A stretch of 52,932 bases of DNA from an uncultured Coprobacillus sp. (GCA_964637725.1 CAZWXH010000001.1:1-52932); one strand, 5' to 3'. Positions 7 to 42,899 are shown, counted from the stretch's first letter. Notes: generated by a model not told the origin, from the letters alone. Numbers and translations: made by a program.

Positions 7-1698
7 TCACACCTGATTTTCCACCCTTGACATCAATACCACGCACTCAACGGTACTTTCATTGTCCCAACAAAGTTCCTCTGTTTCAATTCCATCGTAA
101 AATACCGGGAATCGGAACTTTATGTGCTTCAAGAACCTGCCATCTTCCAGTTCTTTCTCATATAAGTCCACCTGTTCCACAAAGCTGTTTAGGAATTCCT
201 TCTTTTCCTTGTCTATGAATCTATCGTATAGTTTATCAAATAATAGAAGAAATTCATAGACATTATCGCCAGATATTTTCTGCTGGCGGATACTTAACAT
301 TCTGTCTTCCACCTCTGATATTGAATCCTCTAGTGTACTAATTTCATCATAGAATTTGTCCATTCGATTCTGCATATCCTGATATTTTCTATCATAGTGT
401 TTATCCATAATATCCAGAGCATCAATCTGATCTGCCAGCTTATTCTTAGAACCTACAAGCTGTTTCATCTGCTTACGCATATTGGTAAGTTCATTTTCCA
501 GTTCATCAGTATCTATGCTCTTGCCAATTTTACGCTTAATCTCTTCTTCAAACTTTGGATTCTTTACCAGCTTACGAATAACCTCTGCAACTGCATCATT
601 GACTTTATCCTCTCCCCACTGCTTGCGATAGGAACAATGATGTCCATCAACATAGGTTCTGTGCTTGCAGGCATAATAAAAATAATCCTTATACAGTGTT
701 CCATCTTTTCTCTTTTTACGATTTACGTTGCCATACATACCGCTTCCACAGATTGGACACTTAATAATTCCTGATAGAAGATGTTCATGCTCTAAACTAT
801 GCACTTTCTCATGGCTGACACCTGTATCTTCTCTCTTCTTTTGAGCTAATTTCCATTCTTCTTCTGAAATGATTGCTTCATGAATACCATCACTAAGCAT
901 ATATTCATCCTGCTTTACTACGTGGTAATCTGCTCGTGTACCAGCAATTTTCTCATTCTTTCGTCTGCCAAATGCCAGTTTGCCACAATAGATTGGATTA
1001 TCCAGAACACCTTTAATAAAAGATGATGCAAATGTATCTAAGGTGTTATTCTGTCTTTTCTTCTTACGATATCCATTCTGATTTAGATAGGAAGCTATTG
1101 CATTGATTCCCATATTTGTATTAATATATTTATCATAAATCAGACGGATAATATCAACTTCATCCTCAGCAATATGAAGTTCTCCATTCTCCAGTTTGTA
1201 ACCATAAGGAGCAAATCCACCATTCCACTTTCCCTCTCTTGCTTTTTGCTTACGTCCTTCCATTGTCTGGACAAGAATATTTTCACGTTCTATTTCAGCT
1301 ACCGCAGATAATACAGAGATCATTAACTTGCCAGCATCTTTAGAGCTGTCAATACCATCCTCTACACAGATAAGGTTTACACCAAAATCCTGCATTCTCT
1401 GTAAAGAACTAAGTACATCTGCAGCATTACGACCAAATCTTGAAAGTTTGAATACCAGAACAAAATCAACACTATCCTTCCCATCTTCAATATCACGTAG
1501 CATCTGCATGAACTCTGGTCTGCCCTCTACGCTCTTACCAGATTTACCTTCATCAGAGTATTCTCCTGCTATGACCACCTCTTGGAAATCTGCGTATTTA
1601 TGAAGTTTATCTTTCTGTGCATCCAAGCTGTAGCCATCTACCTGCATGGAAGTGGATACGCGAGTGTAGATGTAGCATTTAAGTTGTTTTTTCTTCAT
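7..1698 (-). CDS. Large serine recombinase (integrase/transposase of the element)
   Basis: N-terminal resolvase-type catalytic motif YTRVSTSMQ..DGYSLDAQ. 563 aa with a Cys-rich zinc-ribbon-like segment (CPICG..C..C) and a coiled-coil C-terminus, typical of large serine recombinases. AAAGGA RBS upstream of the ATG. Confidence 0.9.
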   Translation of the reverse strand: MKKKQLKCYIYTRVSTSMQVDGYSLDAQKDKLHKYADFQEVVIAGEYSDEGKSGKSVEGRPEFMQMLRDIEDGKDSVDFVLVFKLSRFGRNAADVLSSLQRMQDFGVNLICVEDGIDSSKDAGKLMISVLSAVAEIERENILVQTMEGRKQKAREGKWNGGFAPYGYKLENGELHIAEDEVDIIRLIYDKYINTNMGINAIASYLNQNGYRKKKRQNNTLDTFASSFIKGVLDNPIYCGKLAFGRRKNEKIAGTRADYHVVKQDEYMLSDGIHEAIISEEEWKLAQKKREDTGVSHEKVHSLEHEHLLSGIIKCPICGSGMYGNVNRKKRKDGTLYKDYFYYACKHRTYVDGHHCSYRKQWGEDKVNDAVAEVIRKLVKNPKFEEEIKRKIGKSIDTDELENELTNMRKQMKQLVGSKNKLADQIDALDIMDKHYDRKYQDMQNRMDKFYDEISTLEDSISEVEDRMLSIRQQKISGDNVYEFLLLFDKLYDRFIDKEKKEFLNSFVEQVDLYEKELEDGRFLKHIKFRFPVFYDGIETEELCWDNESTVECVVLMSRVENQV

Positions 1699-8895: not shown

Positions 8896-9079
8896 ATAAG
8901 GTCACCTCCTAAATCAATACAAATTTATTGTCTTTCTTACTATTATCTCTTCTTTCGAGCAAATATTTCAATACTGTAGTCTATATCTACCTCGTACAAT
9001 CTAAAATGTTTGCTCAAATACTCGCATATCATAAATTTGATAGGATTAATTTATTTCTCGCTCTGCTCTAATGACATGG

Positions 9080-9571
9080 TTAGAAGCCAATTTTCACCCT
9101 GTTTTTCTTTCTTTTGTATATGGTCCGAGTGAATTTCATATCTTCCCCACCAGTCTGACCAACGTATATATCAAAATCATCTAGGTCAAACTCCGGAAAA
9201 AATACATCTCCCATATCCACAATTGTATCAATTTCAGTAATATACATTATATCTACCATGGGAAGTGCTTCCTTAAATAGACCATATCCTCCTGCTATAT
9301 AAATATTTTCATTATTTGCTGTATTTAATGCTTCACTCAACGAAGTAGCTGTAGTCAAATTTTCTCCAATAAAATTCTTTTTTCTAGATACGACAATATT
9401 CTTACGATTAGGAAGCGGATGACCTATTTCCTCGTAGGATTTTCGTCCCATTATAACGGTATTTCCTATTGTGAGTTCACGAAATTGTTGCTGTTCACCT
9501 TTTATTTTCCAAGGTATTTTTCCTTGTTTACCAATTACATTATTTTTCGAACGCGCTACTATTAATCCAAT
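9080..9571 (-). CDS. dfrF: Dihydrofolate reductase, DfrF-like (candidate trimethoprim-insensitive DHFR)
   Basis: MIGLIVARSKNNVIGK..IPWKIKGEQ..FRELT..VIMGRKSYEEIGHPLPNR..GGYGLFKEAL is a DHFR signature. The N-terminal ~60 aa closely resembles DfrF as I remember it; the C-terminal half diverges. Start moved to 9571 (GAGG RBS 9 nt upstream); the track start at 9601 lies at the predicted TSS. Confidence 0.8.
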   Translation of the reverse strand: MGLIVARSKNNVIGKQGKIPWKIKGEQQQFRELTIGNTVIMGRKSYEEIGHPLPNRKNIVVSRKKNFIGENLTTATSLSEALNTANNENIYIAGGYGLFKEALPMVDIMYITEIDTIVDMGDVFFPEFDLDDFDIYVGQTGGEDMKFTRTIYKRKKNRVKIGF

Positions 9572-9606
9572 CATTTTTTTAACCTCGCTTGTAAAATCCA
9601 TTTTCC

Positions 9607-9635
9607 ATTATAATAGTTTATAAATAATCTCCAAA
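9607..9635 (-). promoter_or_regulatory. Possible promoter for the dfr gene
   Basis: Minus strand has TATAAT at 9607-9612 and a weak -35 (TTTGGA) 17 nt upstream. Confidence 0.3.
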
Positions 9636-9711
9636 CCTAACCTAGAAGTTTTTCTTCTAGATTATGTTTTTCGTCTAAACTTATTTTATCATTTTCTATT
9701 AAATAATTCTA

Positions 9712-11115
9712 CTAAATCATCCCAAAATGCACCAGCGCATCCCTAATCGCCTTTTCTTTCTCCGTCGGACACTTCGGCTGCTTTGCATTCTCTGATTTAG
9801 GCTTATTAAAACTTTCTCCAACTTCGATTCCACATTTCTTTTTTACTTGTGCAATATAAAGATTTGATACCATCAATCCTGTTTCTTTTAGCACATATTG
9901 CTGAATCTCATTATAGGTAGCCTTCGTCTCCGCACTGGTTGCATCCAGCTCATCCAAGTTCAAATCCACCTCTATATGATGATCTGCTTTTAGTTGGGAC
10001 AAAAGAACTACCGTCTCAACATGTTCAGTTTGAGGAAACATATCATATAAATATATATCTTCAAACTTATATCCGATTCTTTCAAAATCCTTTAAATCCC
10101 TTGCTTGTGTTGAAGGATCACAAGAGACATAAACAACATTAAGTGGATTTAATATCTTGATTGCATTAATAAAATCACTTGTACTTCCTGCACGAGGAGG
10201 ATCCATAATTACACTATCGATATGTATGTTAGAAGATGCCATATCACGCATAAACTCAGTAGCATCTTTATTTTTAAATTGAATATTTTGGATCTTGTTC
10301 ATCTTAGCATTTAAAATAGCATCTTGATAAGCTTGTGTATTCAATTCTACTCCAATGACTTGTTTAACATGTTTCGCCACTATTAATCCAATAGTTCCAA
10401 TTCCACAATATGTATCCAAGACCACATCTGTTTCTTTAGGATTTAACAATTCAATGACCTTATTATATAGATGAGTACATTGTTCATGGTTAATTTGATA
10501 GAAAGATTGTGCAGATATTTTAAATGATAATCCACATAATTTATCAACAATAAAACCTTTTCCATACAATACTTTTTCTTGTGAAGATAAAACAACACTG
10601 GTCTTTCTTTTATTAATATTCATTAAAACAGTTTGTACTGTTGGACACTTCTTAATGAGTTCCTGACAAAAGTTTTTAGATCCCTTCATATTATCTTCAG
10701 TAGTGACTAAACAGACAAGCGTTTGATTAGTTACTATAGCACGTCTAATTAAAACATATTTTAAGAAACCCTTGTTTCTTTTTTCATCATATATTGAGAC
10801 TCTATATCTTTTTAATAATGATTGGATTTGATTAAGTACTTGATGTGTCACTTCATCATGTAATAAACATTGTTCCATTGGAACAATATTATGTGATGAT
10901 TCTTCATACATACCATAAAGATATTGAGCATTAAATGCTACGATAACTTTATTTCTATATTGATAAGGATGTTGCATACCATTTACTGGATGAACATTCA
11001 CTTGAAATGATTGAAATAACTTTTGACAATATTCTCTTTTTTCTAAAAGTTGTTTAGAGTAATCAATATGAATATATTGACAACTTCCACACTTTTTATA
11101 TATAGGACAATCCAT
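9712..11115 (-). CDS. TRAM-less 23S rRNA (uracil-5-)-methyltransferase (RumA/RlmCD family). The 3' end is chimeric with element DNA.
   Basis: N-terminal Fe-S cysteines (CPIYKKCGSC..C). SAM motif LDTYCGIGTIG. DPPRAG and catalytic SCDP..DMFPQTEHVE. After ..VVLLSQLK the ORF continues for ~90 aa of unrelated sequence in higher-GC DNA. Confidence 0.85.
   Translation of the reverse strand: MDCPIYKKCGSCQYIHIDYSKQLLEKREYCQKLFQSFQVNVHPVNGMQHPYQYRNKVIVAFNAQYLYGMYEESSHNIVPMEQCLLHDEVTHQVLNQIQSLLKRYRVSIYDEKRNKGFLKYVLIRRAIVTNQTLVCLVTTEDNMKGSKNFCQELIKKCPTVQTVLMNINKRKTSVVLSSQEKVLYGKGFIVDKLCGLSFKISAQSFYQINHEQCTHLYNKVIELLNPKETDVVLDTYCGIGTIGLIVAKHVKQVIGVELNTQAYQDAILNAKMNKIQNIQFKNKDATEFMRDMASSNIHIDSVIMDPPRAGSTSDFINAIKILNPLNVVYVSCDPSTQARDLKDFERIGYKFEDIYLYDMFPQTEHVETVVLLSQLKADHHIEVDLNLDELDATSAETKATYNEIQQYVLKETGLMVSNLYIAQVKKKCGIEVGESFNKPKSENAKQPKCPTEKEKAIRDALVHFGMI
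9975..10010. other. Approximate element/chromosome junction (att-derived site) within the methyltransferase ORF
   Basis: The conserved methyltransferase C-terminus (HVETVVLLS) ends here. The intact paralog at 41513 stops 5 residues after the equivalent position. Base composition changes here by eye. Confidence 0.5.
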
Positions 11116-11150
11116 ATAACACCTCTTTCATAAAAAGATTATGACATCTA

Positions 11151-11187
11151 AAAACAAAAAAGTAAAAGCTTTTTTTGCTTTTACTTT
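11151..11187 (-). terminator. Intrinsic terminator about 40 nt upstream of the rumA-like start
   Basis: Minus-strand AGUAAAAGC-aaaaaaa-GCUUUUACU (9-bp stem) followed by UUUUUUGUUUUU. Confidence 0.7.
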
Positions 11188-11270
11188 CCTTTCATACAAA
11201 ATTGGTGAGAAAAGGAATAAATATAAGGAATGAAGAATCTTCCAACTTTGTATAAAAGATTAATATGTAA

Positions 11271-11293
11271 ATAAAAAGGCATAGAATATGCCC
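11271..11293 (-). terminator. Intrinsic terminator (expression platform of the riboswitch-like element; also the first strong terminator downstream of the MATE gene)
   Basis: Minus-strand GGGCAUA-uuc-UAUGCCU followed by UUUUAUUU. Confidence 0.65.
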
Positions 11294-11299
11294 TTATTT

Positions 11300-11395
11300 C
11301 CAATAATGTTGATTGGCAACTGGCTGTCATTCTTAAGTAAGATTAGACCCTTTAGCTTTGCGTCACTACTTTTCAGTAGTTTTGCTATTTACATA
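11300..11395 (-). promoter_or_regulatory. c-di-GMP-I (GEMM-I)-like riboswitch aptamer
   Basis: Minus-strand RNA: AGCAAAAC-ACUACU-GAAA-AGUAGU-GACGCAAAGC-UAAAGGGUC..UCUU-acuu-AAGA..GAC-AGCCAGUUGCC. It shares with the class I consensus (Vc2-type) the GCAAA element, a GNRA-capped hairpin, the invariant GACGCAAAGC, a second hairpin and the closing AGC..GUUxCC. Confidence 0.65.
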
Positions 11396-11404
11396 TCTGT
11401 TTAT

Positions 11405-11413
11405 ATTATAACA
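11405..11413 (-). promoter_or_regulatory. Extended -10 promoter (TGtTATAAT) driving the riboswitch-like RNA
   Basis: Minus strand reads CAGTGTTATAATA. The predicted TSS is ~11398, just 5' of the aptamer. Confidence 0.45.
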
Positions 11414-11459: not shown

Positions 11460-12785
11460 TTACACCAGTTGTCGATTCATCCATTTTCCATTATGATACC
11501 TAATCGCAAAGAATATACATCTTACACCCCAGTCTACAAACATAGCAATCCAAACACCAAGTAATCCTAGATTCATATATCTTCCTAATACATAACTTAA
11601 GAAAAATCTAAATGTCCACATAGAAGCAGCTGATACAATCATCGTGAATTTTGCATCATTAGCAGCACGTAATGCATTTGGGAATGTAAAAGAAATTGGC
11701 CATATGATAATACCGATAATAATGTGTAAAACAATACATTGATAAGCAAGTTCTGTTGTTTGTGATGATAATGAATAGAATGTTAATAGTTTTGGAACGA
11801 TAAACAAAACAGCAATATTCAAAACAAACATAGAAAGATAAGATATCTTCATTAATTTCTTAATATAATATTTTGCTTGTTTATAATCATTAGCTCCTAC
11901 ACACTGTCCGACAACAGTTACCATAGCAAGTCCTAAAGCACTGCCAGGAATAATCAGCAATGAACATACATTATTAGAAACCGCATTTGCGGCAATGGAA
12001 TAAGTTCCAAATGTAGCTATTAATCCTTGAACAAGAATCTTTCCAAATTGAAACATCCCATTTTCTAAACCTGAGGGAATTCCAATAGATAAAATCTTCT
12101 TTAAATATATCCATTCAAATTTCCATTTAAGAAAGTGTTCAACTCTAATATGTTCTTGGCTACGTGATAAAACAAATAAAACAACAATACATGCAACTGC
12201 TCTAGCAATCAATGTTGCTAAAACAGCACCAAAGACTCCCCAACCAAAATAAAAAATAAACAATGCATTTAAAACTATATTAATAGCATTCATAAGGGCA
12301 CTATTAACCATTGCTACCTTAGAGTTTCCAACCGCCCTAAACAAAGCCGCACCAGAGTTATATAAAGCTATAAAAGGATATGATAAAGCTGAAAAGAAAA
12401 AGTATATCTTGGCATTCTCCATAACTGCACTATCAACATGTCCAAATATCATTTCTAATAATTGTTGATTAAATATAACAACAACAATCATAATAAAAAA
12501 AGATAAAACAGCGGTAATAAGAATCAATTGTTTCGCTGATATTCTTGCTTTTTCATTAGCCTTTTGACCAATAAATTGAGCAGCAACTACAGCCCCACCG
12601 GTTCCTAAAGCCGCAAATATATTAATTAATAATAAATTAATACCGTCCACTAATGAAACAGCAGAAACAGCTGCCTCACCTACGCTTGATACCATGATTG
12701 TATCAGCAAATCCGACCATCACAACTAATATTTGTTCAATGATTAAAGGAATAATTAATCTTTTTAATGCTTGATTCGAAAACAT
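11460..12785 (-). CDS. MATE family efflux transporter
   Basis: 441 aa, ~12 TM segments. N-terminus ALKRLIIPLIIEQILVVMVGFADTIMVS is typical of MATE (NorM/DinF-like) proteins. Confidence 0.85.
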   Translation of the reverse strand: MFSNQALKRLIIPLIIEQILVVMVGFADTIMVSSVGEAAVSAVSLVDGINLLLINIFAALGTGGAVVAAQFIGQKANEKARISAKQLILITAVLSFFIMIVVVIFNQQLLEMIFGHVDSAVMENAKIYFFFSALSYPFIALYNSGAALFRAVGNSKVAMVNSALMNAINIVLNALFIFYFGWGVFGAVLATLIARAVACIVVLFVLSRSQEHIRVEHFLKWKFEWIYLKKILSIGIPSGLENGMFQFGKILVQGLIATFGTYSIAANAVSNNVCSLLIIPGSALGLAMVTVVGQCVGANDYKQAKYYIKKLMKISYLSMFVLNIAVLFIVPKLLTFYSLSSQTTELAYQCIVLHIIIGIIIWPISFTFPNALRAANDAKFTMIVSAASMWTFRFFLSYVLGRYMNLGLLGVWIAMFVDWGVRCIFFAIRYHNGKWMNRQLV

Positions 12786-12827: not shown

Positions 12828-13568
12828 CTATAAAAGACATTGTTCTTTCATTTTATGAAACTCTGACTTAGTTAATTGACGATATTCTCCCTCTTTTAAA
12901 TGTTCATCTAATAATAAATTACCAAAAGATATTCTCTTTAGTTCTTTAACTTCATTAAAACAAGATAAAAACATCTTTTTTATTTGATGATATTTACCTT
13001 CATAGATAGTAACATAACAATGATTCTCATCAATGATTTCTAGTTTTGAAGAGCGACACTTAATGTTTTTATCAATAATGACACCCTCTTCAAACTTCTT
13101 TATAATAGATTTATCTAACTTATTCTTTGTCGTTACATAATATGTTTTTTCAATATGATTATCAGGTAATAATAATTTCTTAATTATTGAGACATCATTG
13201 GTTAATAGTAATAAGCCTGTAGTCTCTTTATCTAAACGACCAATACACTTACATTGTTTATCTACGAGATCAACAACACAAGGATAATGTTTATCAAAAT
13301 TTGCACATACATACCCTTTAGGTTTATTTAACATATAATATACAAATGGTTGAGAATTTACTTTTTTCTCATCTACGTAGATAGCATCATTATGATGAAC
13401 TTGATACATTGGATTATCAACAACACCCCCATTAACAACAACATGTTTATGCTTGATTAATGTTTTACATTCCTTAACATTTCCTAAATTATTCTTCATC
13501 AATATATAATATAAATCTTTAATGAGAATTCCTTCCTCTCCAACAATCATTTGATCTTTCATTCCCAT
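12828..13568 (-). CDS. Pseudouridine synthase, RsuA/RluB family (S4 domain + catalytic domain)
   Basis: Catalytic motif GRLDKETTGLLLLTND. An S4-like N-terminus is present. The exact start is uncertain (Met at 13568, 13562 or 13550). Confidence 0.85.
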   Translation of the reverse strand: MGMKDQMIVGEEGILIKDLYYILMKNNLGNVKECKTLIKHKHVVVNGGVVDNPMYQVHHNDAIYVDEKKVNSQPFVYYMLNKPKGYVCANFDKHYPCVVDLVDKQCKCIGRLDKETTGLLLLTNDVSIIKKLLLPDNHIEKTYYVTTKNKLDKSIIKKFEEGVIIDKNIKCRSSKLEIIDENHCYVTIYEGKYHQIKKMFLSCFNEVKELKRISFGNLLLDEHLKEGEYRQLTKSEFHKMKEQCLL

Positions 13569-15517: not shown

Positions 15518-16306
15518 TTATTGTTTTAATAAAATACGATCGTTATAATCATGAGTTGAAGATGAATATAAATGAATTAATTCATCAACACTCATTTTTT
15601 CTCTTTCTTTACCTTCTACAACTGCGATAATTTGACCATCTTTCATGATCATTGTTTTGTTACCATACTTAAGAGCATCTTCCATGTTATGAGTAATCAT
15701 TAATGTTGTAATTTGATGTTCATTAACAAGTTTAGATGATATATTCAATACTTTTTGAGCAGTCTTAGGATCTAAGGCAGCTGTATGTTCATCAAGTAAT
15801 AATAATTCAGGAGTAACATAAGTTGCCATTAAAAGCGTTAAGGCTTGGCGTTGACCACCAGATAAAGTATTAACTTTAACATCTAGTCTATCTTCTAATC
15901 CTAAGTCTAATTCTTTTAAAGCTTTTTTAAATGAATCTCTTTGTTTATGAGAAAATACTGAAAGACTAAAATGTTTTCCTCTTTGTGATGATAAGATAAG
16001 ATTTTCCTCAATTGTCATAGAGGGTGCTGTCCCTTTTAAAGGATCTTGGAATAATCTTCCAATAAAAGAAGAACGTTTATACTCTGGCATATTTGAGAGA
16101 TCTTGACCGTTTAATAGCACTTGACCAGAAGTCATGTCTACAGCTCCAGATATACTTTGAAATAAAGTTGATTTCCCAGCCCCATTGCTTCCGATAATAG
16201 TGACAAAATCACCTTTTTCTAAAGTCAGATTAATTGATGAAAGAGCAACTTTCTCATTAACTGTTCCTTCGTTAAAAACGACGGAAACATCTTTAAGTTC
16301 TAACAT
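15518..16306 (-). CDS. ABC transporter ATP-binding protein
   Basis: Walker A GSNGAGKST, signature LSGGQRQ, Walker B LLLLDE. Confidence 0.9.
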   Translation of the reverse strand: MLELKDVSVVFNEGTVNEKVALSSINLTLEKGDFVTIIGSNGAGKSTLFQSISGAVDMTSGQVLLNGQDLSNMPEYKRSSFIGRLFQDPLKGTAPSMTIEENLILSSQRGKHFSLSVFSHKQRDSFKKALKELDLGLEDRLDVKVNTLSGGQRQALTLLMATYVTPELLLLDEHTAALDPKTAQKVLNISSKLVNEHQITTLMITHNMEDALKYGNKTMIMKDGQIIAVVEGKEREKMSVDELIHLYSSSTHDYNDRILLKQ

Positions 16307-17163
16307 TTTCTTTTCCTCCTTTTTATGCTTGCAGAAGCAATAGCTATCACAACTAAGATAGCAGATAATAGTTTTAAATCACCTGAAGGAAGTCCTAATT
16401 GTAGTGCTAGTGTTAATATTGCACGATAGAAGATGGCACCAAAAACAACTGCTAATAATTGAAAACCAATCTTATCTTTCTTTATGAGAGTTGTCCCGAC
16501 AATAATACTTGCAAGACCAATAACCATCATCCCTATTCCACTGCCAATATCAGAGAATGATTGATGTTGAGCAAATATAGCCCCACTTAAAGATACAAAA
16601 CCATTAGCTATTGCTAAACCTAATATCTTCATCTTATTGGTATCGATTGAACTTGCTCTTACCATATCTTCATTATCACCACATGCTCTTAAAGCAAGAC
16701 CAAGTTGAGTTCTTAAAAAATAATAAAGAAACAAACAGATCAATATTACTATAACAGCAATGATAATGACTTTATGATAAGGATCAAAGCTTTCAAACAT
16801 CGAAAATATTGTAGTACTTTCAAACAAAGAGATGTTAGGTAAATCACCCATGACTCTTAGATTAATAGAATAGAGTCCCGTCATTGTCAATATTCCAGCA
16901 AGCAAAGGCATAATATTAAACTTTGTTATTAATAACCCTGTTACAACTCCTGCCAAGCAGCCAGCAACAAATGAAAGGAACAATCCTAAATATGGCATAG
17001 AATTGACTGCACAGATAGCACTCACTGCACACCCTAGTGTAAAACTTCCATCTACAGTTAAGTCTGGTAAATTTAAAATTTTATAGCTTATAAACAGTCC
17101 TAGTGACATAATCGCAAACATGCCACCAAGCTCTAATGCTCCTAAAACGATCGTTGAATTCAT
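16300..17163 (-). CDS. ABC transporter permease
   Basis: 287 aa polytopic membrane protein between the binding protein and the ATPase. Overlaps the ATPase start by 7 nt. Confidence 0.8.
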   Translation of the reverse strand: MNSTIVLGALELGGMFAIMSLGLFISYKILNLPDLTVDGSFTLGCAVSAICAVNSMPYLGLFLSFVAGCLAGVVTGLLITKFNIMPLLAGILTMTGLYSINLRVMGDLPNISLFESTTIFSMFESFDPYHKVIIIAVIVILICLFLYYFLRTQLGLALRACGDNEDMVRASSIDTNKMKILGLAIANGFVSLSGAIFAQHQSFSDIGSGIGMMVIGLASIIVGTTLIKKDKIGFQLLAVVFGAIFYRAILTLALQLGLPSGDLKLLSAILVVIAIASASIKRRKRKC

Positions 17164-17173: not shown

Positions 17174-18163
17174 CTATTTCATTAAAGATAATGCTTTATC
17201 ATTTTTTATACTATCTGGTAGTGTAATATTTAAATCTTTTAATACTTTTTCATTTACATAAATATTTAAATTTTCTTTATATACTTTAACAGGTATATCA
17301 GTTACCTTTGTACCTTTTAAAACCTTATCAACCATATTGGCTGTTTCCTTACCTAAGTCATCATAGTTAATACCTACACTTAGAAATCCACCATCTTGAA
17401 CCATTGAATCAGCTCCAACATATAAAGGAATCTTTGCTTTACTACAAGCTGGTCCAACCACATTCATAGCTTTAGCAACTGTATTATCATTAGGTGCAAA
17501 TATGGCATCACATTTACTCGTTAATACATTGATTGCTGTTTGAACCTCATTAACAGAAGTAACTGTTGCTTCTACTAATTCAATATCTTTACTATCTGCA
17601 TAAGCTTTAGCCTTATTAATATTTGTTACTGAATTAATCTCTCCTTTGTTATAAATAACTCCTAGTTTCTTTAAATTAGGATTCACTTGCAATGCTCTTT
17701 CTAAAATTAACTCAACTTGAATTTCATCACTAGTCCCTGTTATATTCTTATCTGGCTTTTCTAATGAAGTCATTAAGTTCGCCCCAACAGGATCACTTAC
17801 AGCTGCAAAGACTACTGGAATATCCTTAGATAACTTAGCTGCTGCTTGAGCTACTGGTGTTGCTATTGCCATAACAACATCAGGATTACTAGCTTTAAAA
17901 CTATCAATAATACTACTAGCGGTATTATTATCCCCTTGGGCATTTTTAAAGATATATTCAATATTTTCTTTATCCTTATAACCTAACGCTTCCATTTGTT
18001 TATCAAATGCATCTTTAATTGTATTTAATGAAGTATGTTCAACTAGTTGAATAATAGCAACCTTCTTCATACTTTCATTATCTTTTTCACTTCCACATCC
18101 TACTAACATTGTTACAGCTAATCCAGCTGCTAATAAACCTTTAATTAATTGTTTTGTTTTCAT
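17174..18163 (-). CDS. ABC transporter substrate-binding lipoprotein (ABC_sub_bind/COG2984-like; candidate aromatic amino acid/Trp uptake)
   Basis: Lipobox LVGC. Alternating beta-alpha periplasmic binding protein pattern. Preceded by a T-box leader. Confidence 0.75.
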   Translation of the reverse strand: MKTKQLIKGLLAAGLAVTMLVGCGSEKDNESMKKVAIIQLVEHTSLNTIKDAFDKQMEALGYKDKENIEYIFKNAQGDNNTASSIIDSFKASNPDVVMAIATPVAQAAAKLSKDIPVVFAAVSDPVGANLMTSLEKPDKNITGTSDEIQVELILERALQVNPNLKKLGVIYNKGEINSVTNINKAKAYADSKDIELVEATVTSVNEVQTAINVLTSKCDAIFAPNDNTVAKAMNVVGPACSKAKIPLYVGADSMVQDGGFLSVGINYDDLGKETANMVDKVLKGTKVTDIPVKVYKENLNIYVNEKVLKDLNITLPDSIKNDKALSLMK

Positions 18164-18264: not shown

Positions 18265-18490
18265 AACAAAAAACACCTGTCCTATAAAAAGGACAGATGT
18301 TAAAATCTGCGGTACCACCTTAATTGGTTATAAATAACCCACTCAGTAAAAATGCTAACACATTTTCGCTTTATAACGTAAGCTCACGTCGCAGGATACT
18401 CGAATTTCTTTCCCCTTTGCCCTCGTAGGTCCATTTGCTTAACTGCCACTACCTAGATTCCACCACCCTAGGCTCTCTTTGAGTACATCT
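18265..18490 (-). promoter_or_regulatory. T-box leader (tRNA-sensing riboswitch), probable Trp specifier
   Basis: Minus strand shows a 5' AGAGAG motif. The T-box sequence AAGGUGGUACCGCAG has its GGUGGUACCGCAG core at 18307-18319. The terminator is ACAUCUGUCC-uuuuuaua-GGACAGGUGU plus UUUUUU (18265-18300). Candidate specifier UGG-A at 18431-18433 lies directly 5' of the closing helix CCUA. Confidence 0.8.
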
Positions 18491-18526
18491 TTAAACGTTA
18501 TCTCCTACTCATTAGTTTATGATATA

Positions 18527-29627: not shown

Positions 29628-32624
29628 ATGATGACAACTCCATCAAAGAAAACAAATAATAACAATTATAATTACTCTAAAGACTGTGATTCTATGGTTT
29701 ATAGAGGAGATAATGTTAATCATATTAGAACATTATTTCATATGATTTCTATCTTTATTAAAGTTGATGATATAGCAACTTTTATTTTGGATGATAATCA
29801 AAAAATCTCTGGTTTTTATGATTTACATCAAACTATATTTGATAAGGATTTTTTTGTTTATTATCATGCTTATTTAAAAGAAGCAGAAAATCCTATTCAA
29901 TTAATTAATGAGTATTTTAATACTAAGAATTATATAGCGATTTGTTCTTTAGTGAATGAACAAGAAGTTGTTGGATATATTGTTTTCAAAAGAGTTGAAA
30001 AAGCTTTTAATATGGACGAAATAAATATAATGACTCAATGTTCTCATGTATACAGTCAATATTGTCTCGATATTAACCAATATAAGAATACAAACTTTGA
30101 AAAGAGTATTTATCATACAATGATTAATAACATTGATTCAAATGTCTATGTTACTGATCCTTACACATATGAAGTCTTATTCATGAATGAAGCGATGAAA
30201 AAGATTTATAATATTGAAAACCCTGTTGGAAAAAAATGTTGGGAACTTTTTAAGTGTGGTAGAGATAAGCCATGTGATGAATGTCCAGTTCCACGACTTC
30301 TTGAATCCCCTACTGATTCTTATACATGGGAAGAATCAAGTGATTATAACCAAAAGAATTATTTAAATCATGATTGTTTGATTGAATGGTTTGATCATTC
30401 TTTGGTTCATTTTCAACATTCTGTTGATATAACACATTTAAAGGAAATAACATTTGATGCTTCTTATGATGAACTTACTGGTATTTTTAATCGTAAAACA
30501 GGAAAAAGAATGTTGAAGAGTCAGTTGAATTTAGCAGCTGACAACAATAAAGAAACAATTGTTTGTTTATTAGATGTCAATGATCTAAAGAAGATCAATG
30601 ATTCTTTTAATCATTCAAAAGGTGATGAAGCACTTCGTCTTATTTCTTCACATGTCAAAAAACATATGAAAGAAAATGATGTTTTCTTTAGATTAAGTGG
30701 TGATGAATTTATAGCTTCTTTCTATGATTATAGTTATAGTGAAGTAAATAGTATAATGCGTAATACTTTAAGAGACTTAAGGCAATATGCTTTAAAGAAG
30801 AAGTTAGAGTATGATTTATCATTTTGTTATGGATTATATATAGTTGATGATTCTTACAATCTTACTGTTAATGAAATTATCAGCAATGCTGATGAGAAAA
30901 TGTATGAATGGAAAAAGAAAGCTCATTTAAGAAATGCTCAAAAAGAGTTAAAGAATAAACAGCCTATTGGTGAAGTCTTTGATTATAATGAAAAATTATT
31001 ATATAGTGCCCTTTCTAAGAGTACTGATGATTATATCTTTATCTGTAATATGAAGACTGGTGTTTTTAAATACACCCCTAATATGGTTGAAGAATTCAAC
31101 TTCCCTGCTCAAGTTTTACACAATGCTGCAGCAATTTTTGGCGCTAAAATTCATATGGCAGATAAATATGAATTTTTAAATGCTAATCAACAAATTACTG
31201 ATGGTAAATCAGATAGTCATATTGTTGAGTATCGTGCTTTAAACAAAGATAATGAATATGTTTGGTTACGTTGTCGTGGACATGTTGAATATGATGAAAA
31301 TAATGAAGCGGCTATATTCGCTGGTTTTATATCTAATCTTGGTCGTAAAAACTATCGTGATATATTAACAGGACTTTATAATAGATTTGAATTTGAGAAG
31401 GTTACTAATCAAAACATTGATGAAGAATATACTGTTATATTAATCAATATTAATGACTTCAAGAGTATTAACAATCTATATAATCGTGAATTTGGCGATA
31501 ATGTTCTTCGTATTATTGGTCAAAATCTTCAAACAATACTTGCTAATAAAGCCACTGTTTATAAATTAGATGGTGATGAGTTTGCGATTTTAACGAAGGA
31601 AACAAGTATTAAAAAAATTAAGAGTTTATATAATGAAATCTTGTCATATATTAATGAAAATCATACATATGATGATAAATCTTATATTCTCTCTATTACT
31701 GCTGGAGTTGCGCAAGCCCCTAAAGATGGTAATTCTTATTTAGATATTCAAAGAAGTTGTGAAATAGCATTACAATTTGGAAAACATAACACCAGAGATA
31801 AATTAACTTTCTATAGTGAAAAGATCAACACAAAAAGAACTTATCAAGTTCAACTTGTGAATACATTAAAACAATGTATTCAAAATAACTTTGAAAATTT
31901 CTTCCTTGTTTATCAACCAATTATTGATATCAAAAATCATTATATATGTAAAATTGAAGCTCTTTGTCGTTGGAAAGTTCCAATGTTTGTTGATATTGGT
32001 CCTGATCGTTTTATTCCACTATTAGAAGATACTGGCGATATCATTGAACTAGGATATTGGATTTTTGAAGAAGCTATCTCACATCTTAAAAAATGTTTAG
32101 AAACAAAACCTGATTTATCAATTAGTATTAATGTCTCATATATCCAACTCTCTGAAGGACAGTTTGTTAATAAGATTATGAATATCATTAATAAATATGA
32201 TGTTCCCTATCAAAATATTATTATTGAATTAACCGAGACATCAATCGCCAAGAATTCTCAATTTATCATAAAAGCTATCAACCAACTCAGAAGTCTAGGT
32301 ATAAAGATAGCTATGGATGATTTTGGAACAGGTTATTCTTCTCTTGCATTACTTAAAGATGAACCATTGGACATTGTGAAAATAGATCAATCTTTTGTTA
32401 AAGGTATTGAATCAAATAGCTTTAATCGAACATTTGTCAAACTTATTATTGAACTCTGTCATCAACTTCATCTTGCAGTCTTAATTGAAGGTGTTGAAAC
32501 AAAAGCTGAATTAGATGAACTTCTTTTACTGGATCCTGATTATATTCAAGGATACTACTTTAGTAAACCCTTATTAGAAGAAGAACATATAAAATCACTA
32601 CAAAATCAAGAAGTCACTTTATAA
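29628..32624 (+). CDS. Multidomain c-di-GMP phosphodiesterase: GAF-like / Cys-rich PAS-like / degenerate GGDEF (SGDEF) / PAS / degenerate GGDEF (DGDEF) / EAL
   Basis: EAL signature set is intact (EALCRW, INVS, ELTE, DDFGTGYSS, KIDQSF, EGVE, QGYYF). The GGDEF sites read RLSGDEF and KLDGDEF. Cys cluster CWELFKCGRDKPCDEC. Confidence 0.85.
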   Translation: MMTTPSKKTNNNNYNYSKDCDSMVYRGDNVNHIRTLFHMISIFIKVDDIATFILDDNQKISGFYDLHQTIFDKDFFVYYHAYLKEAENPIQLINEYFNTKNYIAICSLVNEQEVVGYIVFKRVEKAFNMDEINIMTQCSHVYSQYCLDINQYKNTNFEKSIYHTMINNIDSNVYVTDPYTYEVLFMNEAMKKIYNIENPVGKKCWELFKCGRDKPCDECPVPRLLESPTDSYTWEESSDYNQKNYLNHDCLIEWFDHSLVHFQHSVDITHLKEITFDASYDELTGIFNRKTGKRMLKSQLNLAADNNKETIVCLLDVNDLKKINDSFNHSKGDEALRLISSHVKKHMKENDVFFRLSGDEFIASFYDYSYSEVNSIMRNTLRDLRQYALKKKLEYDLSFCYGLYIVDDSYNLTVNEIISNADEKMYEWKKKAHLRNAQKELKNKQPIGEVFDYNEKLLYSALSKSTDDYIFICNMKTGVFKYTPNMVEEFNFPAQVLHNAAAIFGAKIHMADKYEFLNANQQITDGKSDSHIVEYRALNKDNEYVWLRCRGHVEYDENNEAAIFAGFISNLGRKNYRDILTGLYNRFEFEKVTNQNIDEEYTVILININDFKSINNLYNREFGDNVLRIIGQNLQTILANKATVYKLDGDEFAILTKETSIKKIKSLYNEILSYINENHTYDDKSYILSITAGVAQAPKDGNSYLDIQRSCEIALQFGKHNTRDKLTFYSEKINTKRTYQVQLVNTLKQCIQNNFENFFLVYQPIIDIKNHYICKIEALCRWKVPMFVDIGPDRFIPLLEDTGDIIELGYWIFEEAISHLKKCLETKPDLSISINVSYIQLSEGQFVNKIMNIINKYDVPYQNIIIELTETSIAKNSQFIIKAINQLRSLGIKIAMDDFGTGYSSLALLKDEPLDIVKIDQSFVKGIESNSFNRTFVKLIIELCHQLHLAVLIEGVETKAELDELLLLDPDYIQGYYFSKPLLEEEHIKSLQNQEVTL

Positions 32625-36783: not shown

Positions 36784-37872
36784 ATGGGAAAACAATGGAA
36801 TACAATTATTTACTCAAATATATTACCGATAATACTTTTGAGCGTTTTTTTAATTATTATCATATACAATTCAGTGTTTAATAAAAACAAAACAAAACTT
36901 TTTATATTATCTACTCTTATTATCATAATGATGTTAATTGTTAAGAGTGCTGATTATTTACTAAGTTATCAAGAAGGAGAAATATACGCATCATTAAGAA
37001 ATGTCACAACATTTATTAATTTCTCTTCTGCTCCACTTGTTCCTTTATTCCTTTATAAAATATCAAGTCAAAAGACAAATACATTTAAATTATATATTCC
37101 ACTTATATCAAATATTATTGTTTGTTTATTAAGTATTCCTTTTGGTTATATCTTTAGTATAAATTCAATGAATGTTTATGAACGTGGTCCACTATTCTTT
37201 TTTCCATTTGTGATAACAATCTTTTATTTATTCATAGTCATTATCCAAAATAAAGATCAATTATTAAAAAGTAAAAATTCAGAGAGAATATTTCTTTTGT
37301 TTACAATTATTCTTATTTCTGTATTTATGTTAATTGAAGTCGTATTTGGTTTTTATTTTGTTTCTTGGACTTCAGCAGCAATTGTCTTTCCTTTATATTA
37401 CTTATTACTCAATGTTAATCATTCAATTATTGATCCCCTTACTAATGCCTATAATCGTCTTATGTATACAATGGATTTAGAAAAAATGAATAAGAATCAC
37501 AATTACTTAATTGCGCTTTTAGATCTCAATTACTTTAAAAATGTTAATGATCAATATGGTCATGATGCTGGTGATCAAGCTCTCATTTATTTCACAAAGA
37601 CCGTGAGTCATTATATTCCTAAATCTGTCTCACTATATCGTATTGGTGGTGATGAGTTTGTCTTGTTATCTAAAAAGGATATTGATATAGAAAAGATATC
37701 ACAGTGTTTAAATGAGGCCCGTAAAGATACACAAAAACATTTGGCTGACTTTTCTTATGGTATCGATATCTTCGATCATTCAACTTCACTTAATGATTTT
37801 CTTAATCACATCGATCAACTCATGTATGAAAACAAAAAAATAGATAAACAAAGAAAACAACAACTTATTTGA
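36784..37872 (+). CDS. Membrane-anchored diguanylate cyclase (multi-TM N-terminus + GGDEF)
   Basis: About 6 TM segments, then DPLTNAYNR..NDQYGHDAGD..RIGGDEF (intact GGDEF). No RxxD I-site upstream. Confidence 0.85.
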   Translation: MGKQWNTIIYSNILPIILLSVFLIIIIYNSVFNKNKTKLFILSTLIIIMMLIVKSADYLLSYQEGEIYASLRNVTTFINFSSAPLVPLFLYKISSQKTNTFKLYIPLISNIIVCLLSIPFGYIFSINSMNVYERGPLFFFPFVITIFYLFIVIIQNKDQLLKSKNSERIFLLFTIILISVFMLIEVVFGFYFVSWTSAAIVFPLYYLLLNVNHSIIDPLTNAYNRLMYTMDLEKMNKNHNYLIALLDLNYFKNVNDQYGHDAGDQALIYFTKTVSHYIPKSVSLYRIGGDEFVLLSKKDIDIEKISQCLNEARKDTQKHLADFSYGIDIFDHSTSLNDFLNHIDQLMYENKKIDKQRKQQLI

Positions 37873-39321: not shown

Positions 39322-41046
39322 ATGGATCAGTTAGGACTTAGTCAAAATGACTCTTTAGAAGAACAATTAAAACAATGTAAAGAAATAGTGACAATGTTTT
39401 CTAATACCAGCATTGGTGGTGTCGCAAAAATGTCTATTAAAGATATGAGTATTATAACGGCAACTGATGGATATTATCAATTAACTGGTTATTCAAGAGC
39501 AGAAAGCTTACTTCCTCCTTTTTCTAATTGTGGTATGAATTTAGTTATCAAGGAAGACTTAGAAGAACTTCAAGATAAGGTCAATTATCTGATAACTGAA
39601 AACAAACCTATTAAAGTTGATTATCGCATTAGAAAGAAAGATGGTTCTATTGCATGGAACTCAGGATTATGTTCAAGTGTTCAAAGTAATGAAGATGGTC
39701 AATATATTGAAGTCTTCTTCCTAGATACTACGCAAGATAAAAATAATGAAATACAACTGATTAGTCTTATTGATAACCTAACAAGCGGACTTATCAGAAT
39801 GAAGTTTAATTCCAAAATTGAAATTCTTTATGCGAATAATGAATTTTATAGACAAATTGGATATACGTATGATGAATTCAATTCCATAACTCTTAATAAT
39901 GATTTTTCTTTAATTGTTTATGAAGAAGACCTTGCTTATATAAAAACAGAAATCAATGAATTTATCGCATCACATAAAAATAGAAAAACGATGAGTTATC
40001 GAATTGTTACAAAGAATAATCAAATCAAATGGATTAAAATGCAGATTTCTAGACTCTATGAAGAAATAGAAAATGAATTAATCTTTCAATGTATTCTTAC
40101 AGATATTACTAAGGATAAAGAAAAAGAGAAACAGATTCTTTTAAACGAAGAAAAGTTTCGGATTATTTCTGAACAAACCCGTGATATCATCTTTGATTGG
40201 AATATTCATACTGATGAAATCACTTATTCGCCTGTTTATCAAAAGGTTTTTGGATCTCCTCCACCTAAGTCAATGACTTCTTTAAAACTACTTAAAAGTG
40301 ATATTATTCATAATGATGATAAAGAGATTTTAAAAACAATGATTCAAGATATTAAGTATAATGTTCCCTACTCTGATTGTAGAATCAGATTACGAAAAGG
40401 TGATGGTACATTCTTTTGGGCACTTCATAGAGCAACTGCCATTAGAGAAGATGAAAATAGTCCTGAAGCTGATTATGTTATTGGTATTGTTAGTGATGTT
40501 AATGATTTAATGGAAGATACTATTAATCTTAAGATAAAAGCAGAACATGATGATTTAACAGGTTTATTAAATAGAGCTACTGGACAAACCATTATTGAAA
40601 ATATTTTAACTTATTCTAAATCAAATACATCACATGTTTTTATTCAATTTGATATTGATAAATTTAAGCAGATCAATGATTTTATGGGCCATGCCGCAGG
40701 TGATCTTGCTTTAAAATTAATTTCTTCACAAATTAAAGAAATCTTTAAAAAAACAGATGTTCTCATTCGTATGGGTGGCGATGAGTTTGCGGTATTTATC
40801 AAGGATATTCATAATATTAATACTATCCACAAAAGAATCGAAACTCTACGTGATACAATTTTCAGTGATTTTCAATTCGAAGAAAAAATCTATCCACTAT
40901 CAATAAGTATAGGAGCAGCATTTTGGCCTCAAGATGGTAGCACATTTGACGAACTCTATAAAAATGCCGATATAGCGATGTATCAAGCAAAACGAAATGG
41001 TGGAAATAAGTATGTAATATTTAATGATGAATTAAAGAAAACCTAA
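39322..41046 (+). CDS. Cytoplasmic PAS-PAS-PAS-GGDEF diguanylate cyclase
   Basis: Three PAS/PAC-like segments, then DDLTGLLNR..NDFMGHAAGD..RMGGDEF (intact). Confidence 0.85.
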   Translation: MDQLGLSQNDSLEEQLKQCKEIVTMFSNTSIGGVAKMSIKDMSIITATDGYYQLTGYSRAESLLPPFSNCGMNLVIKEDLEELQDKVNYLITENKPIKVDYRIRKKDGSIAWNSGLCSSVQSNEDGQYIEVFFLDTTQDKNNEIQLISLIDNLTSGLIRMKFNSKIEILYANNEFYRQIGYTYDEFNSITLNNDFSLIVYEEDLAYIKTEINEFIASHKNRKTMSYRIVTKNNQIKWIKMQISRLYEEIENELIFQCILTDITKDKEKEKQILLNEEKFRIISEQTRDIIFDWNIHTDEITYSPVYQKVFGSPPPKSMTSLKLLKSDIIHNDDKEILKTMIQDIKYNVPYSDCRIRLRKGDGTFFWALHRATAIREDENSPEADYVIGIVSDVNDLMEDTINLKIKAEHDDLTGLLNRATGQTIIENILTYSKSNTSHVFIQFDIDKFKQINDFMGHAAGDLALKLISSQIKEIFKKTDVLIRMGGDEFAVFIKDIHNINTIHKRIETLRDTIFSDFQFEEKIYPLSISIGAAFWPQDGSTFDELYKNADIAMYQAKRNGGNKYVIFNDELKKT

Positions 41047-41512: not shown

Positions 41513-42865
41513 CTATTTAACTGCTGATAATCGAACAATGCTTTCGATATGATGACTTTGTGGGAACATATCCACAGGTTGACATATATCTGCACTATAA
41601 CCATTATCTTGAAGATAAGCAATATCCCTAGCTTGTGTTGCGACATCACAAGAGATGTAAACAATTCTATCTGGTCTAAGGGTTATAAGTTGACTAAGAA
41701 AAAGTTGTGAACAGCCTTTTCTTGGTGGATCAATCATAACAACATCGATATGCTTATTTTCCTTAGCAAAATCGACCATAAATTCACCAGCATCTTGACA
41801 AGAAAAATCAACATTATTGATATGATTTCTAATGGCATTATCTTTAGCATCTTTAATCGCTTGTTCAACTATTTCAACACCATATACATGTTCTACATAT
41901 TTAGCTAAAGATAAAGAAATTGTCCCTATTCCACAATAGGCATCAATTACTATATCAGTAGGTTTAAAATCAGCATATTCAATAGCTTTAGAATAAAGGT
42001 GTTGAACTTGAATTGGATTCACTTGATAAAATGATTTCAATGAAATACGATAAGTATTTTCAAGCAAAATATCTTCGATATAACCATTGCCATATAATAC
42101 TTTTTCTTCATCACCTAAAATAACATTATCATGTCTTTTGTTAATATTATGAATAACAGTTGTTAAATTAGGAAACTCTCTCGTTAATATTTCTATCATA
42201 TAATCAAAACCATTGATTTTATTATGATAGCTAATAATTGCTAACATATATTGATTTGTTGCATTTGCAGACTTAACTAGTATATGTCTAATATTTCCTT
42301 TATGAGCGACCTTATCATAAGCTACTTCATGATTTTCTTCTAATAGAGCTCTTACTCGATTGACAAGTCTATTTGATTCATCATCTTGGATAAAGCAAGT
42401 CTTCATAGGAATGATTTCATTTGTATGTTGTTTATAAAAACCGGTCACTAAATGTTTTTGATTATTTCCTACTGGCACTTGAACTTTATTTCTATAAAAC
42501 CAAGGATTATCCATCATTAAGCATGGTAAGACTTCCACTTGACAATGACCTATTCTTTCCATTGTATCCTTAACTCTTTTTGTCTTTAGATTTTGTTGAC
42601 CTAGCATTGATAAATGTTGCAGATGACATCCTCCACATTGTTTAAACAAAGGGCAACGGACATCTTCTCTATATTCACTTGAATGACTGAGTTCCACTAA
42701 TCTACCAACAGCATAGTTTTTTAAAACTTTGACAATCTTTATCTTTCCAATTTCATCAACTAACATATTCTTAACAAATATAGGAAAAAGATCAACCTTT
42801 ACAATCCCTTGTCCATCATGGGTATAATCAATACACTTTCCTTCTACATAATCATTCTTTTTCAT
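41513..42865 (-). CDS. rlmCD: 23S rRNA (uracil-5-)-methyltransferase RlmCD/RumA with N-terminal TRAM domain (intact paralog)
   Basis: TRAM-like N-terminus. Fe-S cysteines CPLFKQCGGC. IDAYCGIGTI, DPPRKG, SCDV..DMFPQSHHIE. The ATG at 42865 follows a GGAGGA RBS. Confidence 0.85.
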   Translation of the reverse strand: MKKNDYVEGKCIDYTHDGQGIVKVDLFPIFVKNMLVDEIGKIKIVKVLKNYAVGRLVELSHSSEYREDVRCPLFKQCGGCHLQHLSMLGQQNLKTKRVKDTMERIGHCQVEVLPCLMMDNPWFYRNKVQVPVGNNQKHLVTGFYKQHTNEIIPMKTCFIQDDESNRLVNRVRALLEENHEVAYDKVAHKGNIRHILVKSANATNQYMLAIISYHNKINGFDYMIEILTREFPNLTTVIHNINKRHDNVILGDEEKVLYGNGYIEDILLENTYRISLKSFYQVNPIQVQHLYSKAIEYADFKPTDIVIDAYCGIGTISLSLAKYVEHVYGVEIVEQAIKDAKDNAIRNHINNVDFSCQDAGEFMVDFAKENKHIDVVMIDPPRKGCSQLFLSQLITLRPDRIVYISCDVATQARDIAYLQDNGYSADICQPVDMFPQSHHIESIVRLSAVK

Positions 42866-42875
42866 GTTTTCCTCC

Positions 42876-42899
42876 AAAAAAAACGAGCCCTGCTCGTTT
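42876..42899 (-). terminator. Intrinsic terminator whose U-tract abuts the rlmCD Shine-Dalgarno
   Basis: Minus-strand AAACGAGC-agg-GCUCGUUU plus UUUUU, then GGAGGAAAACAUG. Confidence 0.6.

Follow-up and report, generated by a model that had tools for sequence, protein, structure and literature searches.

A c-di-GMP-I riboswitch in the leader of a rumA-like RNA methyltransferase gene of gut Erysipelotrichales: a candidate transcription attenuator

Introduction

Riboswitches of the cyclic di-guanosine monophosphate class I (c-di-GMP-I, or GEMM-I; RF01051) have been found chiefly upstream of genes for motility, adhesion, pili, secretion and signalling, and include Vc2 of Vibrio cholerae and Cd1 of Clostridioides difficile. 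Here we describe a member of this class in a stretch of DNA of 52,932 nucleotides (nt), referred to throughout as ‘the window’ (GCA_964637725.1, CAZWXH010000001.1:1-52932), from an uncultured Coprobacillus sp., a member of the Erysipelotrichales. It lies on the minus strand between a gene for a MatE transporter of the MATE type (12785..11460) and a gene for an RNA (uracil-C5)-methyltransferase of the rumA family (11115..9712), and probably serves as the sensory part of a ~285-nt leader that controls the second of these. Full-text literature searches returned no paper that ties a c-di-GMP riboswitch to rumA or to rRNA methyltransferase genes. A conserved riboswitch before an RNA uracil-methyltransferase gene would connect c-di-GMP to RNA or ribosome modification.

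Bc1, from the Bacillus cereus group (B. thuringiensis), is situated upstream of mcpE and joins a class I aptamer to a long expression platform with two terminators (PMC11218506); by analogy of layout, we regard it as the closest precedent for the leader described here. Class I riboswitches that are orphans, or that are linked to non-coding RNAs (ncRNAs), have been listed for C. difficile (PMC11477304). The 23S-methyl motif (RF01065), a leader of the Lactobacillales, consists of two hairpins, the second of which is a terminator; it precedes genes of the 23S rRNA uracil-methyltransferase type, and autoregulation has been proposed for it (PMC1950547). The aptamer class at the present locus is a known one; what is new is an unusual architecture that we read as a split P1 helix, a further conserved domain and, as the putative target, a gene of a new class.

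Identity of the aptamer

The RF01051 covariance model matches the minus strand of the window at 11396..11312, full length (model positions 1–87 of 87), scoring 77.4 bits where the gathering threshold is 35; over the whole 52.9-kb window, E = 1.5e-13. An earlier description of the locus, made from the DNA without database searches and referred to below as the sequence-only reading, had proposed a GEMM-I riboswitch here and had asked for this covariance search; the score exceeds the gathering threshold, and every hallmark that it listed is present in the minus-strand sequence, namely GCAAA, ACUACU-GAAA-AGUAGU, GACGCAAAGC and AGCCAGUUGCC. Aligned to the consensus, ACUACU-GAAA-AGUAGU, GACGCAAAGC, GGGUCUAA and AAUGAC supply the GNRA hairpin, the AAA linker and the receptor-like second hairpin (CUAA/AUG). 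The first hairpin carries three compensatory pairs across the six lineages introduced below, and the orthologous aptamers of relatives score 69.4–81.5 bits on RF01051. The invariant consensus positions are likewise occupied in the alignment: the G of aGCAAA, the middle A of CGCAAAG and the first C of UGCC. We take these to be the equivalents of Vc2 nucleotides G20, A47 and C92, a reading of our own that was aided by PMC11218506. By family membership, therefore, we judge the element to be a genuine c-di-GMP-sensing riboswitch and an ordinary member of RF01051.

Conservation and linkage to rumA

The leader occurs directly 5' of an orthologous rumA gene, one whose product lacks a TRAM domain, in at least six lineages, all from gut Erysipelotrichales; those described here are that of the window and five others (L007, L016, L076, L132 and L136). 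Among 19 rumA loci of a species-representative set that were scanned with Rfam, two have a c-di-GMP-I aptamer directly upstream, those of Longibaculum muris DSM 29487 (L007, 76.4 bits) and of an Erysipelotrichaceae metagenome-assembled genome (L016, 81.5 bits). A scan of metagenome DNA for the exact aptamer core found 63 loci, with rumA downstream in the window species, the Longibaculum type and a new lineage, L076 (79.2 bits). Contigs bearing further RumA homologues added L132 (76.5 bits) and L136 (69.4 bits), the cores of which are slightly different; these two were missed by the metagenome scan, which needed the exact core, and so the true distribution is under-sampled. The RumA proteins of the six lineages are 62–71% identical to that of the window, and across the same lineages the aptamer core is nearly invariant. 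The closest named relatives of the protein, at 65–73% identity, come from Candidatus Stoquefichus, Massilimicrobiota, Longibaculum and Coprobacillus. Four metagenome contigs of gut type encode an identical MatE protein, and the three of them that reach the leader carry it unchanged or with one substitution. L. muris DSM 29487 is a cultured type strain, and predictions for its leader are therefore directly testable.

The gene upstream of the leader varies. It encodes the MATE transporter in the window only, a GH1-like protein in L007 and L132, where it has its own terminator, and a pseudouridine synthase in L016. Because the downstream gene is constant while the upstream gene varies, the element appears to be linked to rumA, not to the MATE gene, and not to be an orphan. 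Its place immediately before rumA orthologues, kept in six lineages, is that of a cis-regulatory element in a 5' untranslated region (UTR), and nowhere among these does it lack a cis-linked gene, for an orthologous one follows in 6/6. The sequence-only reading had headlined the element as an orphan, or as a small RNA (sRNA) without a regulated gene, a view to which the rumA orthologue immediately downstream in each lineage lends no support. Another of its options, that an rRNA methyltransferase is regulated here in an unusual way, agrees with the comparison of lineages, since it is the full leader that recurs upstream of rumA.

That reading had also suggested a 3'-UTR element of the MATE gene. 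Within the window, no terminator intervenes between the MATE stop codon (11460) and the element, as such an arrangement would need. Against it, a MATE gene is upstream in the window lineage only, the upstream gene being a different one elsewhere, such as the GH1-like or pseudouridine synthase gene; the upstream gene of L007 ends in its own terminator; and the element itself carries a conserved promoter. Synteny leads us to reject this explanation, to which we give next to no weight.

In Stoquefichus, Massilimicrobiota and other closer relatives, no leader was found: a gene for an M20 peptidase abuts rumA instead, with a gap of ~40 nt. The 3' part of the leader, comprising the hairpins H3 and T2 described below, thus does not occur in those relatives without the aptamer. 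Leader-bearing lineages have no peptidase gene at that position, and so it seems that one site is taken either by the leader or by the peptidase gene. The riboswitch-less relatives L126–L131 and L133–L135 have the gene order MATE-Smr-M20-rumA or pseudouridine synthase-M20-rumA.

Promoter and predicted transcription start

An extended −10 element, TGTTATAAT, is present on the minus strand at 11405..11413, as the sequence-only reading had stated, and its position is conserved in the six lineages. In each of them a TGnTAnAAT box stands exactly 5 nt before an invariant CAGAUAUGUAAAU (CAGATATG), while the 5 nt between them vary. This fixed spacing, set against variable intervening nucleotides, is why we place the predicted start at about 11398, at the A of CAG, ~7 nt past the extended −10. 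The L. muris leader is predicted to begin at the A or G of CAGAUAUG. The −35 region in the window is weak (CTATCA, 3/6 positions), and for this reason the promoter goes unlisted in a simple promoter scan.

Architecture of the leader

The leader extends for ~285 nt ahead of the rumA-like gene, and its promoter, its aptamer and ~235 nt of structured RNA recur in the five other lineages. Minimum-free-energy (MFE) folds of the first four leaders give one common architecture, and explicit helix tables, drawn up for all six, show the same helices pairing in every one. The outermost of these helices, P0, is a long-range helix of 12 bp. Its 5' strand, GAUAUGUAAAUA (AUAUGUAAAU; 11386..11397, minus strand), is the 5' extreme of the RNA, directly 5' of the aptamer core; its 3' strand, UAUUUACAUAUU (AUUUACAUAU; 11262..11273, minus strand), lies ~110 nt downstream. 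P0 encloses the aptamer together with two hairpins, Ha and H2, and forms with 11–12 bp in 6/6 lineages. Ha (CCAAU-loop-AUUGG; 11300..11316, minus strand) is present in all six, as CCAU/AUGG in L016, and draws its 5' arm from the CC of the conserved aptamer 3' GCC. H2 (AAGGGCAUA-UUC-UAUGCCUUU; 11275..11295, minus strand), which corresponds to ‘terminator 1’ of the sequence-only reading and is also called T1 below, differs in sequence in every lineage, but the hairpin always forms.

The innermost pair of P0, which takes in the nucleotide directly preceding the G20 equivalent of the aptamer, is A-U in the window and in L136 but G-C in L007, L132 and L016. On account of this covariation we read P0, by analogy with the Vc2 structures, as the P1 helix of the aptamer, interrupted by Ha and H2 between the C92 equivalent and the 3' strand of P1. 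Among 45 distinct c-di-GMP-I loci that share the core, the rumA-type leaders have the longest helix in the 5' flank, and its 3' strand is unusually distant. In several respects the element resembles other RF01051 riboswitches: it has the GAAA-tetraloop hairpin, GACGCAAAGC, a second hairpin of the receptor type, the 3' GCC, a place in the 5'-UTR and a terminator afterwards. It differs from them in its 12-bp closing helix, the 3' strand of which is found 46–52 nt past the GCC; in the two inserted hairpins; in an expression platform of ~150 nt that includes an extra conserved domain; and in the putative target, an RNA methyltransferase gene.

The extra domain, H3 (11189..11258, minus strand), was recognized in the MFE folds and is built upon a base helix, CUUUUAUACAAAGUUGG / CCAAUUUUGUAUGAAAG, in which compensatory changes occur in L136, L076 and L016. 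Its loop motif is UUCCUUUUC in the window (11217–11209, minus strand) and CCCUUUC in the other five lineages, and the stems that close the motif loop vary in sequence among the relatives yet still pair. Covariation was counted in a MAFFT alignment of the six lineages (A3), with H2 and the inner part of H3 left out and 54 pairs scored: 97.5% of the cells are standard pairs, eight pairs are changed on both sides, and none of 500 shuffles reaches the observed values. When the 3' partners were slid by 1–3 columns as a control, just 37–42% paired. Coming from six related sequences, these numbers are no more than indicative. Apart from c-di-GMP-I, permissive Rfam scans (E <= 10) of the leaders returned no known second aptamer, such as one of the S-adenosylmethionine (SAM) or S-adenosylhomocysteine (SAH) class.

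The motif AU(U/C)CCUUU in the H3 loop resembles nucleotides 1938–1944 of Escherichia coli 23S rRNA, AUUCCUU, around the RumA target U1939. This resemblance invites a dual-input scheme in which H3 and T2 form an autoregulatory module like the 23S-methyl motif, bound by the methyltransferase, to which the aptamer adds control by c-di-GMP. The enzyme would bind the H3 loop as a mimic of its putative rRNA target, c-di-GMP would act through the split-P1 aptamer, and one attenuator would integrate two signals. The likeness to the 23S-methyl motif, which concerns architecture only, consists of two hairpins that both covary, a second hairpin that is a terminator with a U tract, and a downstream gene of the 23S methyltransferase type, here one that matches TIGR00479 (PMC1950547). 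Retention of the loop motif in six lineages, on stems that covary in five relatives, also speaks for the scheme. The differences are that the present leaders belong to Erysipelotrichales and that their two hairpins come after a riboswitch aptamer. The RF01065 covariance model, moreover, has no match to the leaders of the window, L007, L016 and L076 at E <= 10, or to those of L132 and L136 at E <= 1. We therefore rejected an identification of H3 and T2 with the 23S-methyl motif. Further weight against the scheme comes from the motif itself, which is equally like the 3' end of 16S rRNA (the anti-Shine-Dalgarno) and can also pair with a GAAAG near T2, and from the fact that its likeness to an rRNA target was noticed post hoc. 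We consider the dual-input scheme quite unlikely, as regards both the module as a whole and the binding of the enzyme to the loop. Were it true, a second messenger of lifestyle switching would directly tune rRNA modification.

Several pairing partners are conceivable for the loop. For CCCUUUC these are GAAAG where H3 meets T2, AGGG of the aptamer and, in some lineages, the Shine-Dalgarno sequence, and the motif resembles both the 16S 3' end and 23S 1938–1944; no single explanation fits all six lineages. Pairing with the Shine-Dalgarno was rejected as inconsistent, fitting L007 and L132 but not L016 or L076.

The sequence-only reading had seen no credible open reading frame (ORF) between the two terminator-like hairpins, and this is borne out: the leader, including the 85 nt between them, contains only short ORFs without a Shine-Dalgarno. 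Some of these bear on another explanation, attenuation by a leader peptide in the manner of erm genes, in which ribosomes stalled on a short ORF across H3 would control T2. In all four leaders examined for this, a short ORF through H3 reads CCCUUUC as Pro-Phe; three of these four ORFs end at the UGA of GUAUGA, immediately ahead of T2. A Shine-Dalgarno is missing from all of them, however; their start codons are not homologous, lying in Ha, H2, P0 or H3, and their frame relative to the motif varies by lineage. Lacking both ribosome-binding site and conserved start in the four leaders, the leader peptide was rejected, and we hold it to be very improbable.

The two terminator-like hairpins

A pattern scan of the minus strand reports terminator-like sites at 11295..11275 (T1, the hairpin H2) and 11190..11156 (T2); in all, three sites were found in 1.5 kb, against 0.3 expected from shuffles. 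In the window, T1 has the form AAGGGCAUA-UUC-UAUGCCUUU followed by UUAUUUAC, and this ‘U tract’ is in fact the conserved 3' strand of P0. The free energy (ΔG) of H2/T1 is −8.4 in the window and −11.4 in L136, both with U-rich tails, and −3.3 to −4.3 in the other four, where the tail is CAUUUACAU and a U tract is missing. T1 is thus terminator-like in two of the six lineages only, the window and L136. ‘Terminator 1’ of the sequence-only reading stands insofar as the hairpin is found by the scan; as a terminator it is strong in 2/6 lineages only, and it is nested inside P0 in all six.

T2, by contrast with this, is an intrinsic terminator in 6/6 lineages. It consists of GGAAAGUAAAAGC-A7-GCUUUUACUUUUU and a U tract (11150..11189, minus strand), and in the window has a stem of 13–14 bp with an A7 loop. 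Its ΔG is −12.6 in the window, −14.2 in L136 and −11.9 to −14.2 in the other four; its tail has 5–6 U in 9 nt in every lineage, and two of its pairs are compensatory. The second strong terminator of the sequence-only reading is accordingly real as a scanned and conserved feature, with ΔG of about −12 to −14. T2 ends 20–25 nt before the ATG in L007, L132 and L016, and 41–49 nt before it in the window, L136 and L076.

This pair of hairpins recalls Bc1, which likewise has a class I aptamer and two rho-independent terminator-like hairpins, the downstream T2 being the robust one (PMC11218506). The spacing is different, the terminators being 28 bp apart in Bc1 and 85 nt apart in the window, where a conserved hairpin domain lies between them. 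T1 is here nested in the helix that closes the aptamer, and is terminator-like in 2/6 lineages, and the downstream gene is another one.

A possible secondary promoter, TTTACT-17-TGtCATAAT (11138..11166, minus strand), was picked up by the promoter scan between T2 and the Shine-Dalgarno of the rumA-like gene. It overlaps the 3' arm of T2 and is not conserved; L136 also has a promoter-like sequence between T2 and the Shine-Dalgarno, and L007, L132 and L016 have no space for an equivalent. The statement in the sequence-only reading that rumA has its own promoter and ribosome-binding site therefore describes the window, where both the promoter-like site and a Shine-Dalgarno are present, but cannot hold generally, given the 20–25 nt from T2 to the ATG in three lineages.

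These features matter for the view that the element is a stand-alone, c-di-GMP-binding sRNA with its 3' end at T1 (~125 nt) or at T2 (~245 nt), which acts in trans or as a sponge for the ligand while rumA is expressed from its own promoter. T2 is strong in every lineage and in every folding model, and the terminated leader should hence dominate; the window's promoter-like site is suitably placed between T2 and the Shine-Dalgarno; and c-di-GMP-I riboswitches that are orphans or precede ncRNAs are on record in C. difficile (PMC11477304). Like those, the element has a terminator after its aptamer and no ORF directly behind it; unlike them, it has a conserved protein-coding gene 20–49 nt past the last terminator in every lineage. 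Also against an independent sRNA, the element always stands immediately 5' of the same orthologue, in the same orientation, in six lineages with differing upstream genes, and a separate rumA promoter would have no space in the three lineages with the short T2–ATG distance. We regard the sRNA as an unlikely explanation.

A candidate mechanism of attenuation

The leader is, we think, probably a cis-acting, c-di-GMP-responsive transcription attenuator of the rumA-like gene. The main argument for regulation in cis is that, where no promoter fits after T2 (L007, L132 and L016), rumA would have to be reached through T2 from the riboswitch promoter. In L. muris (L007), the upstream gene moreover has its own terminator.

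Transcription would start at the riboswitch promoter, and the first nucleotides, AUAUGUAAAU, would later pair with AUUUACAUAU to form P0, closing the aptamer like a P1 into which Ha and H2 are inserted. For the methyltransferase to be expressed, RNA polymerase would have to pass T2. Binding of c-di-GMP would lock P0 and sequester its 3' strand, and T2 would then form; without ligand, UUUAC of the P0 3' strand may pair with GUAAA of the T2 5' arm, extending H3 coaxially and hindering T2. High c-di-GMP would favour termination (OFF), because a ligand-locked P0 would free T2 from the UUUAC:GUAAA pairing. The layout would be the classic one of an attenuator in which segments pair 1:2, 2:3 and 3:4, except that H3 stands between segments 2 and 3. 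H2 with its U-rich tail may add a first, partial site of termination in the window and L136.

The repeats that such a switch would use are present. The 5' strand of P0 shares GUAAA with the 5' arm of T2, where L136 and L076 have GUAAG; the 3' strand of P0, in which L076 has UUUGC, shares UUUAC with the 3' arm of T2. In 6/6 lineages, therefore, the 3' strand of P0 could form pairs of the UUUAC:GUAAA type with the 5' arm of T2. In minimal constructs of four leaders, some pairing of these two segments extends H3 in all four, with a gain of −1.7 to −4.7 kcal/mol; the pairs are UUUAC:GUAAA in three (UUUGC:GUAAG in L076) and UAUU:AGUA in the window.

A number of points weigh against attenuation of this kind. 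Antiterminators were sought by folding truncated RNAs, by barring either the 3' arm of T2 or the 5' strand of P0 from pairing, and by scanning the leader for duplexes with the 5' arm of T2. T2 always forms in nearest-neighbour folding, even with the P0 5' strand blocked, and P0 is favoured over its alternatives by 4–8 kcal/mol without ligand. No strong, mutually exclusive antiterminator was found, nor did the duplex scans bring up a strong partner for the T2 5' arm whose position is conserved. In Bc1, the sole dual-terminator c-di-GMP-I riboswitch to have been studied, T2 stays folded and expression is unresponsive (PMC11218506). Finally, the promoter-like sites after T2 in the window and L136 could make rumA partly independent of the leader in those two. 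Because folding always forms T2 and yields no strong antiterminator, the direction of the switch and the identity of the antiterminator are weakly inferred from the models, and we would put the chance of the OFF direction somewhat short of even.

The same results can be read in favour of a locked leader like that of Bc1, in which a constitutive T2 sets a low basal level of rumA and c-di-GMP remodels only H2/T1, P0, or translation or stability. Besides the thermodynamic models, in which T2 never opens, the behaviour of Bc1 itself is a precedent, for there c-di-GMP unfolds T1, T2 stays, and downstream expression does not respond (PMC11218506). Two observations argue the other way. The aptamer core is almost invariant while the RumA proteins have diverged to 62–71% identity with that of the window, which suggests that ligand sensing is under selection; and with T1 terminator-like in only 2/6 lineages, the two-terminator logic of Bc1 is not the conserved feature. 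A locked leader accordingly seems to us improbable. The leader is also informative for riboswitch mechanism, with its closing helix broken by ~50 nt of hairpins, its second conserved domain, and a terminator that by simple thermodynamics would always be on.

The rumA-like protein

The product of the rumA-like gene (9712..11115, minus strand; Shine-Dalgarno AAGAGGUG, 11120..11127, minus strand) is a protein of 467 aa of the COG2265 type, with a match to PF05958. It scores 319.9 bits on TIGR00479 against a cut-off of 183.55, over profile positions 57–432 only, from which it follows that the N-terminal TRAM domain is absent; the N-terminal CxxxxxCxxC cysteines are retained. Its closest solved structure is Streptococcus pneumoniae SP_1029 (5XJ1), which we take to be RlmCD. 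The conserved core comprises residues 1–374 (11115–9994), and relatives match residues 1–~375 only.

The remaining 93 residues (375–467; 9993–9715) are absent from most rumA orthologues, and form a C-terminal extension that comes from an integrated mobile element fused to the 3' end of rumA. This element (window positions 1–9993) encodes DHFR, a glyoxalase, a GNAT protein, NikA/MobC, a relaxase, a KilA-N protein and a large serine recombinase (7..1698). A contig of the same species (L001) has another element (RepA_N/DUF6017) after rumA, and its RumA is 91.6% identical to that of the window. rumA is a known insertion site, used for example by CTn5 in C. difficile 630 delta-erm, which the element of the window resembles in its insertion at this gene (PMC4320837).

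A second rumA paralogue (41513..42877, minus strand) encodes a TRAM-containing protein of 454 aa (TIGR00479, 441 bits, positions 2–432). It adjoins a PAS-GGDEF gene (39322..41046), and Rfam finds no RNA element before it.

Genomic surroundings

The window encodes three GGDEF/EAL proteins (29628..32624, 36784..37872 and 39322..41046) and a type IV pilus cluster (19020–24310, minus strand) with a PilT-like protein, a PilB-like protein that has an MshEN domain, and a protein with an N-terminal methylation motif. The sequence-only reading was thus right to note c-di-GMP enzymes and a pilus locus, and it is on account of these proteins, including the MshEN-domain PilB, that we believe the organism to use c-di-GMP. 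No c-di-GMP-I or c-di-GMP-II riboswitch is found near the pilus genes at the gathering threshold.

The only other Rfam match in the window is a T-box leader (18521..18286, minus strand; 106.1 bits against a gathering score of 93). It lies upstream of an ABC transporter operon (ABC_sub_bind, 18163..17174; permease, 17163..16300; ATPase, 16306..15518), not of an aminoacyl-tRNA synthetase gene. An ORF of 124 aa with no Pfam match (13519–13893, minus strand) overlaps the start of a pseudouridine synthase gene (12828–13568, minus strand) by 50 nt; the same pairing, in the form of a 94-aa gene followed by the pseudouridine synthase gene, occurs on several related contigs.

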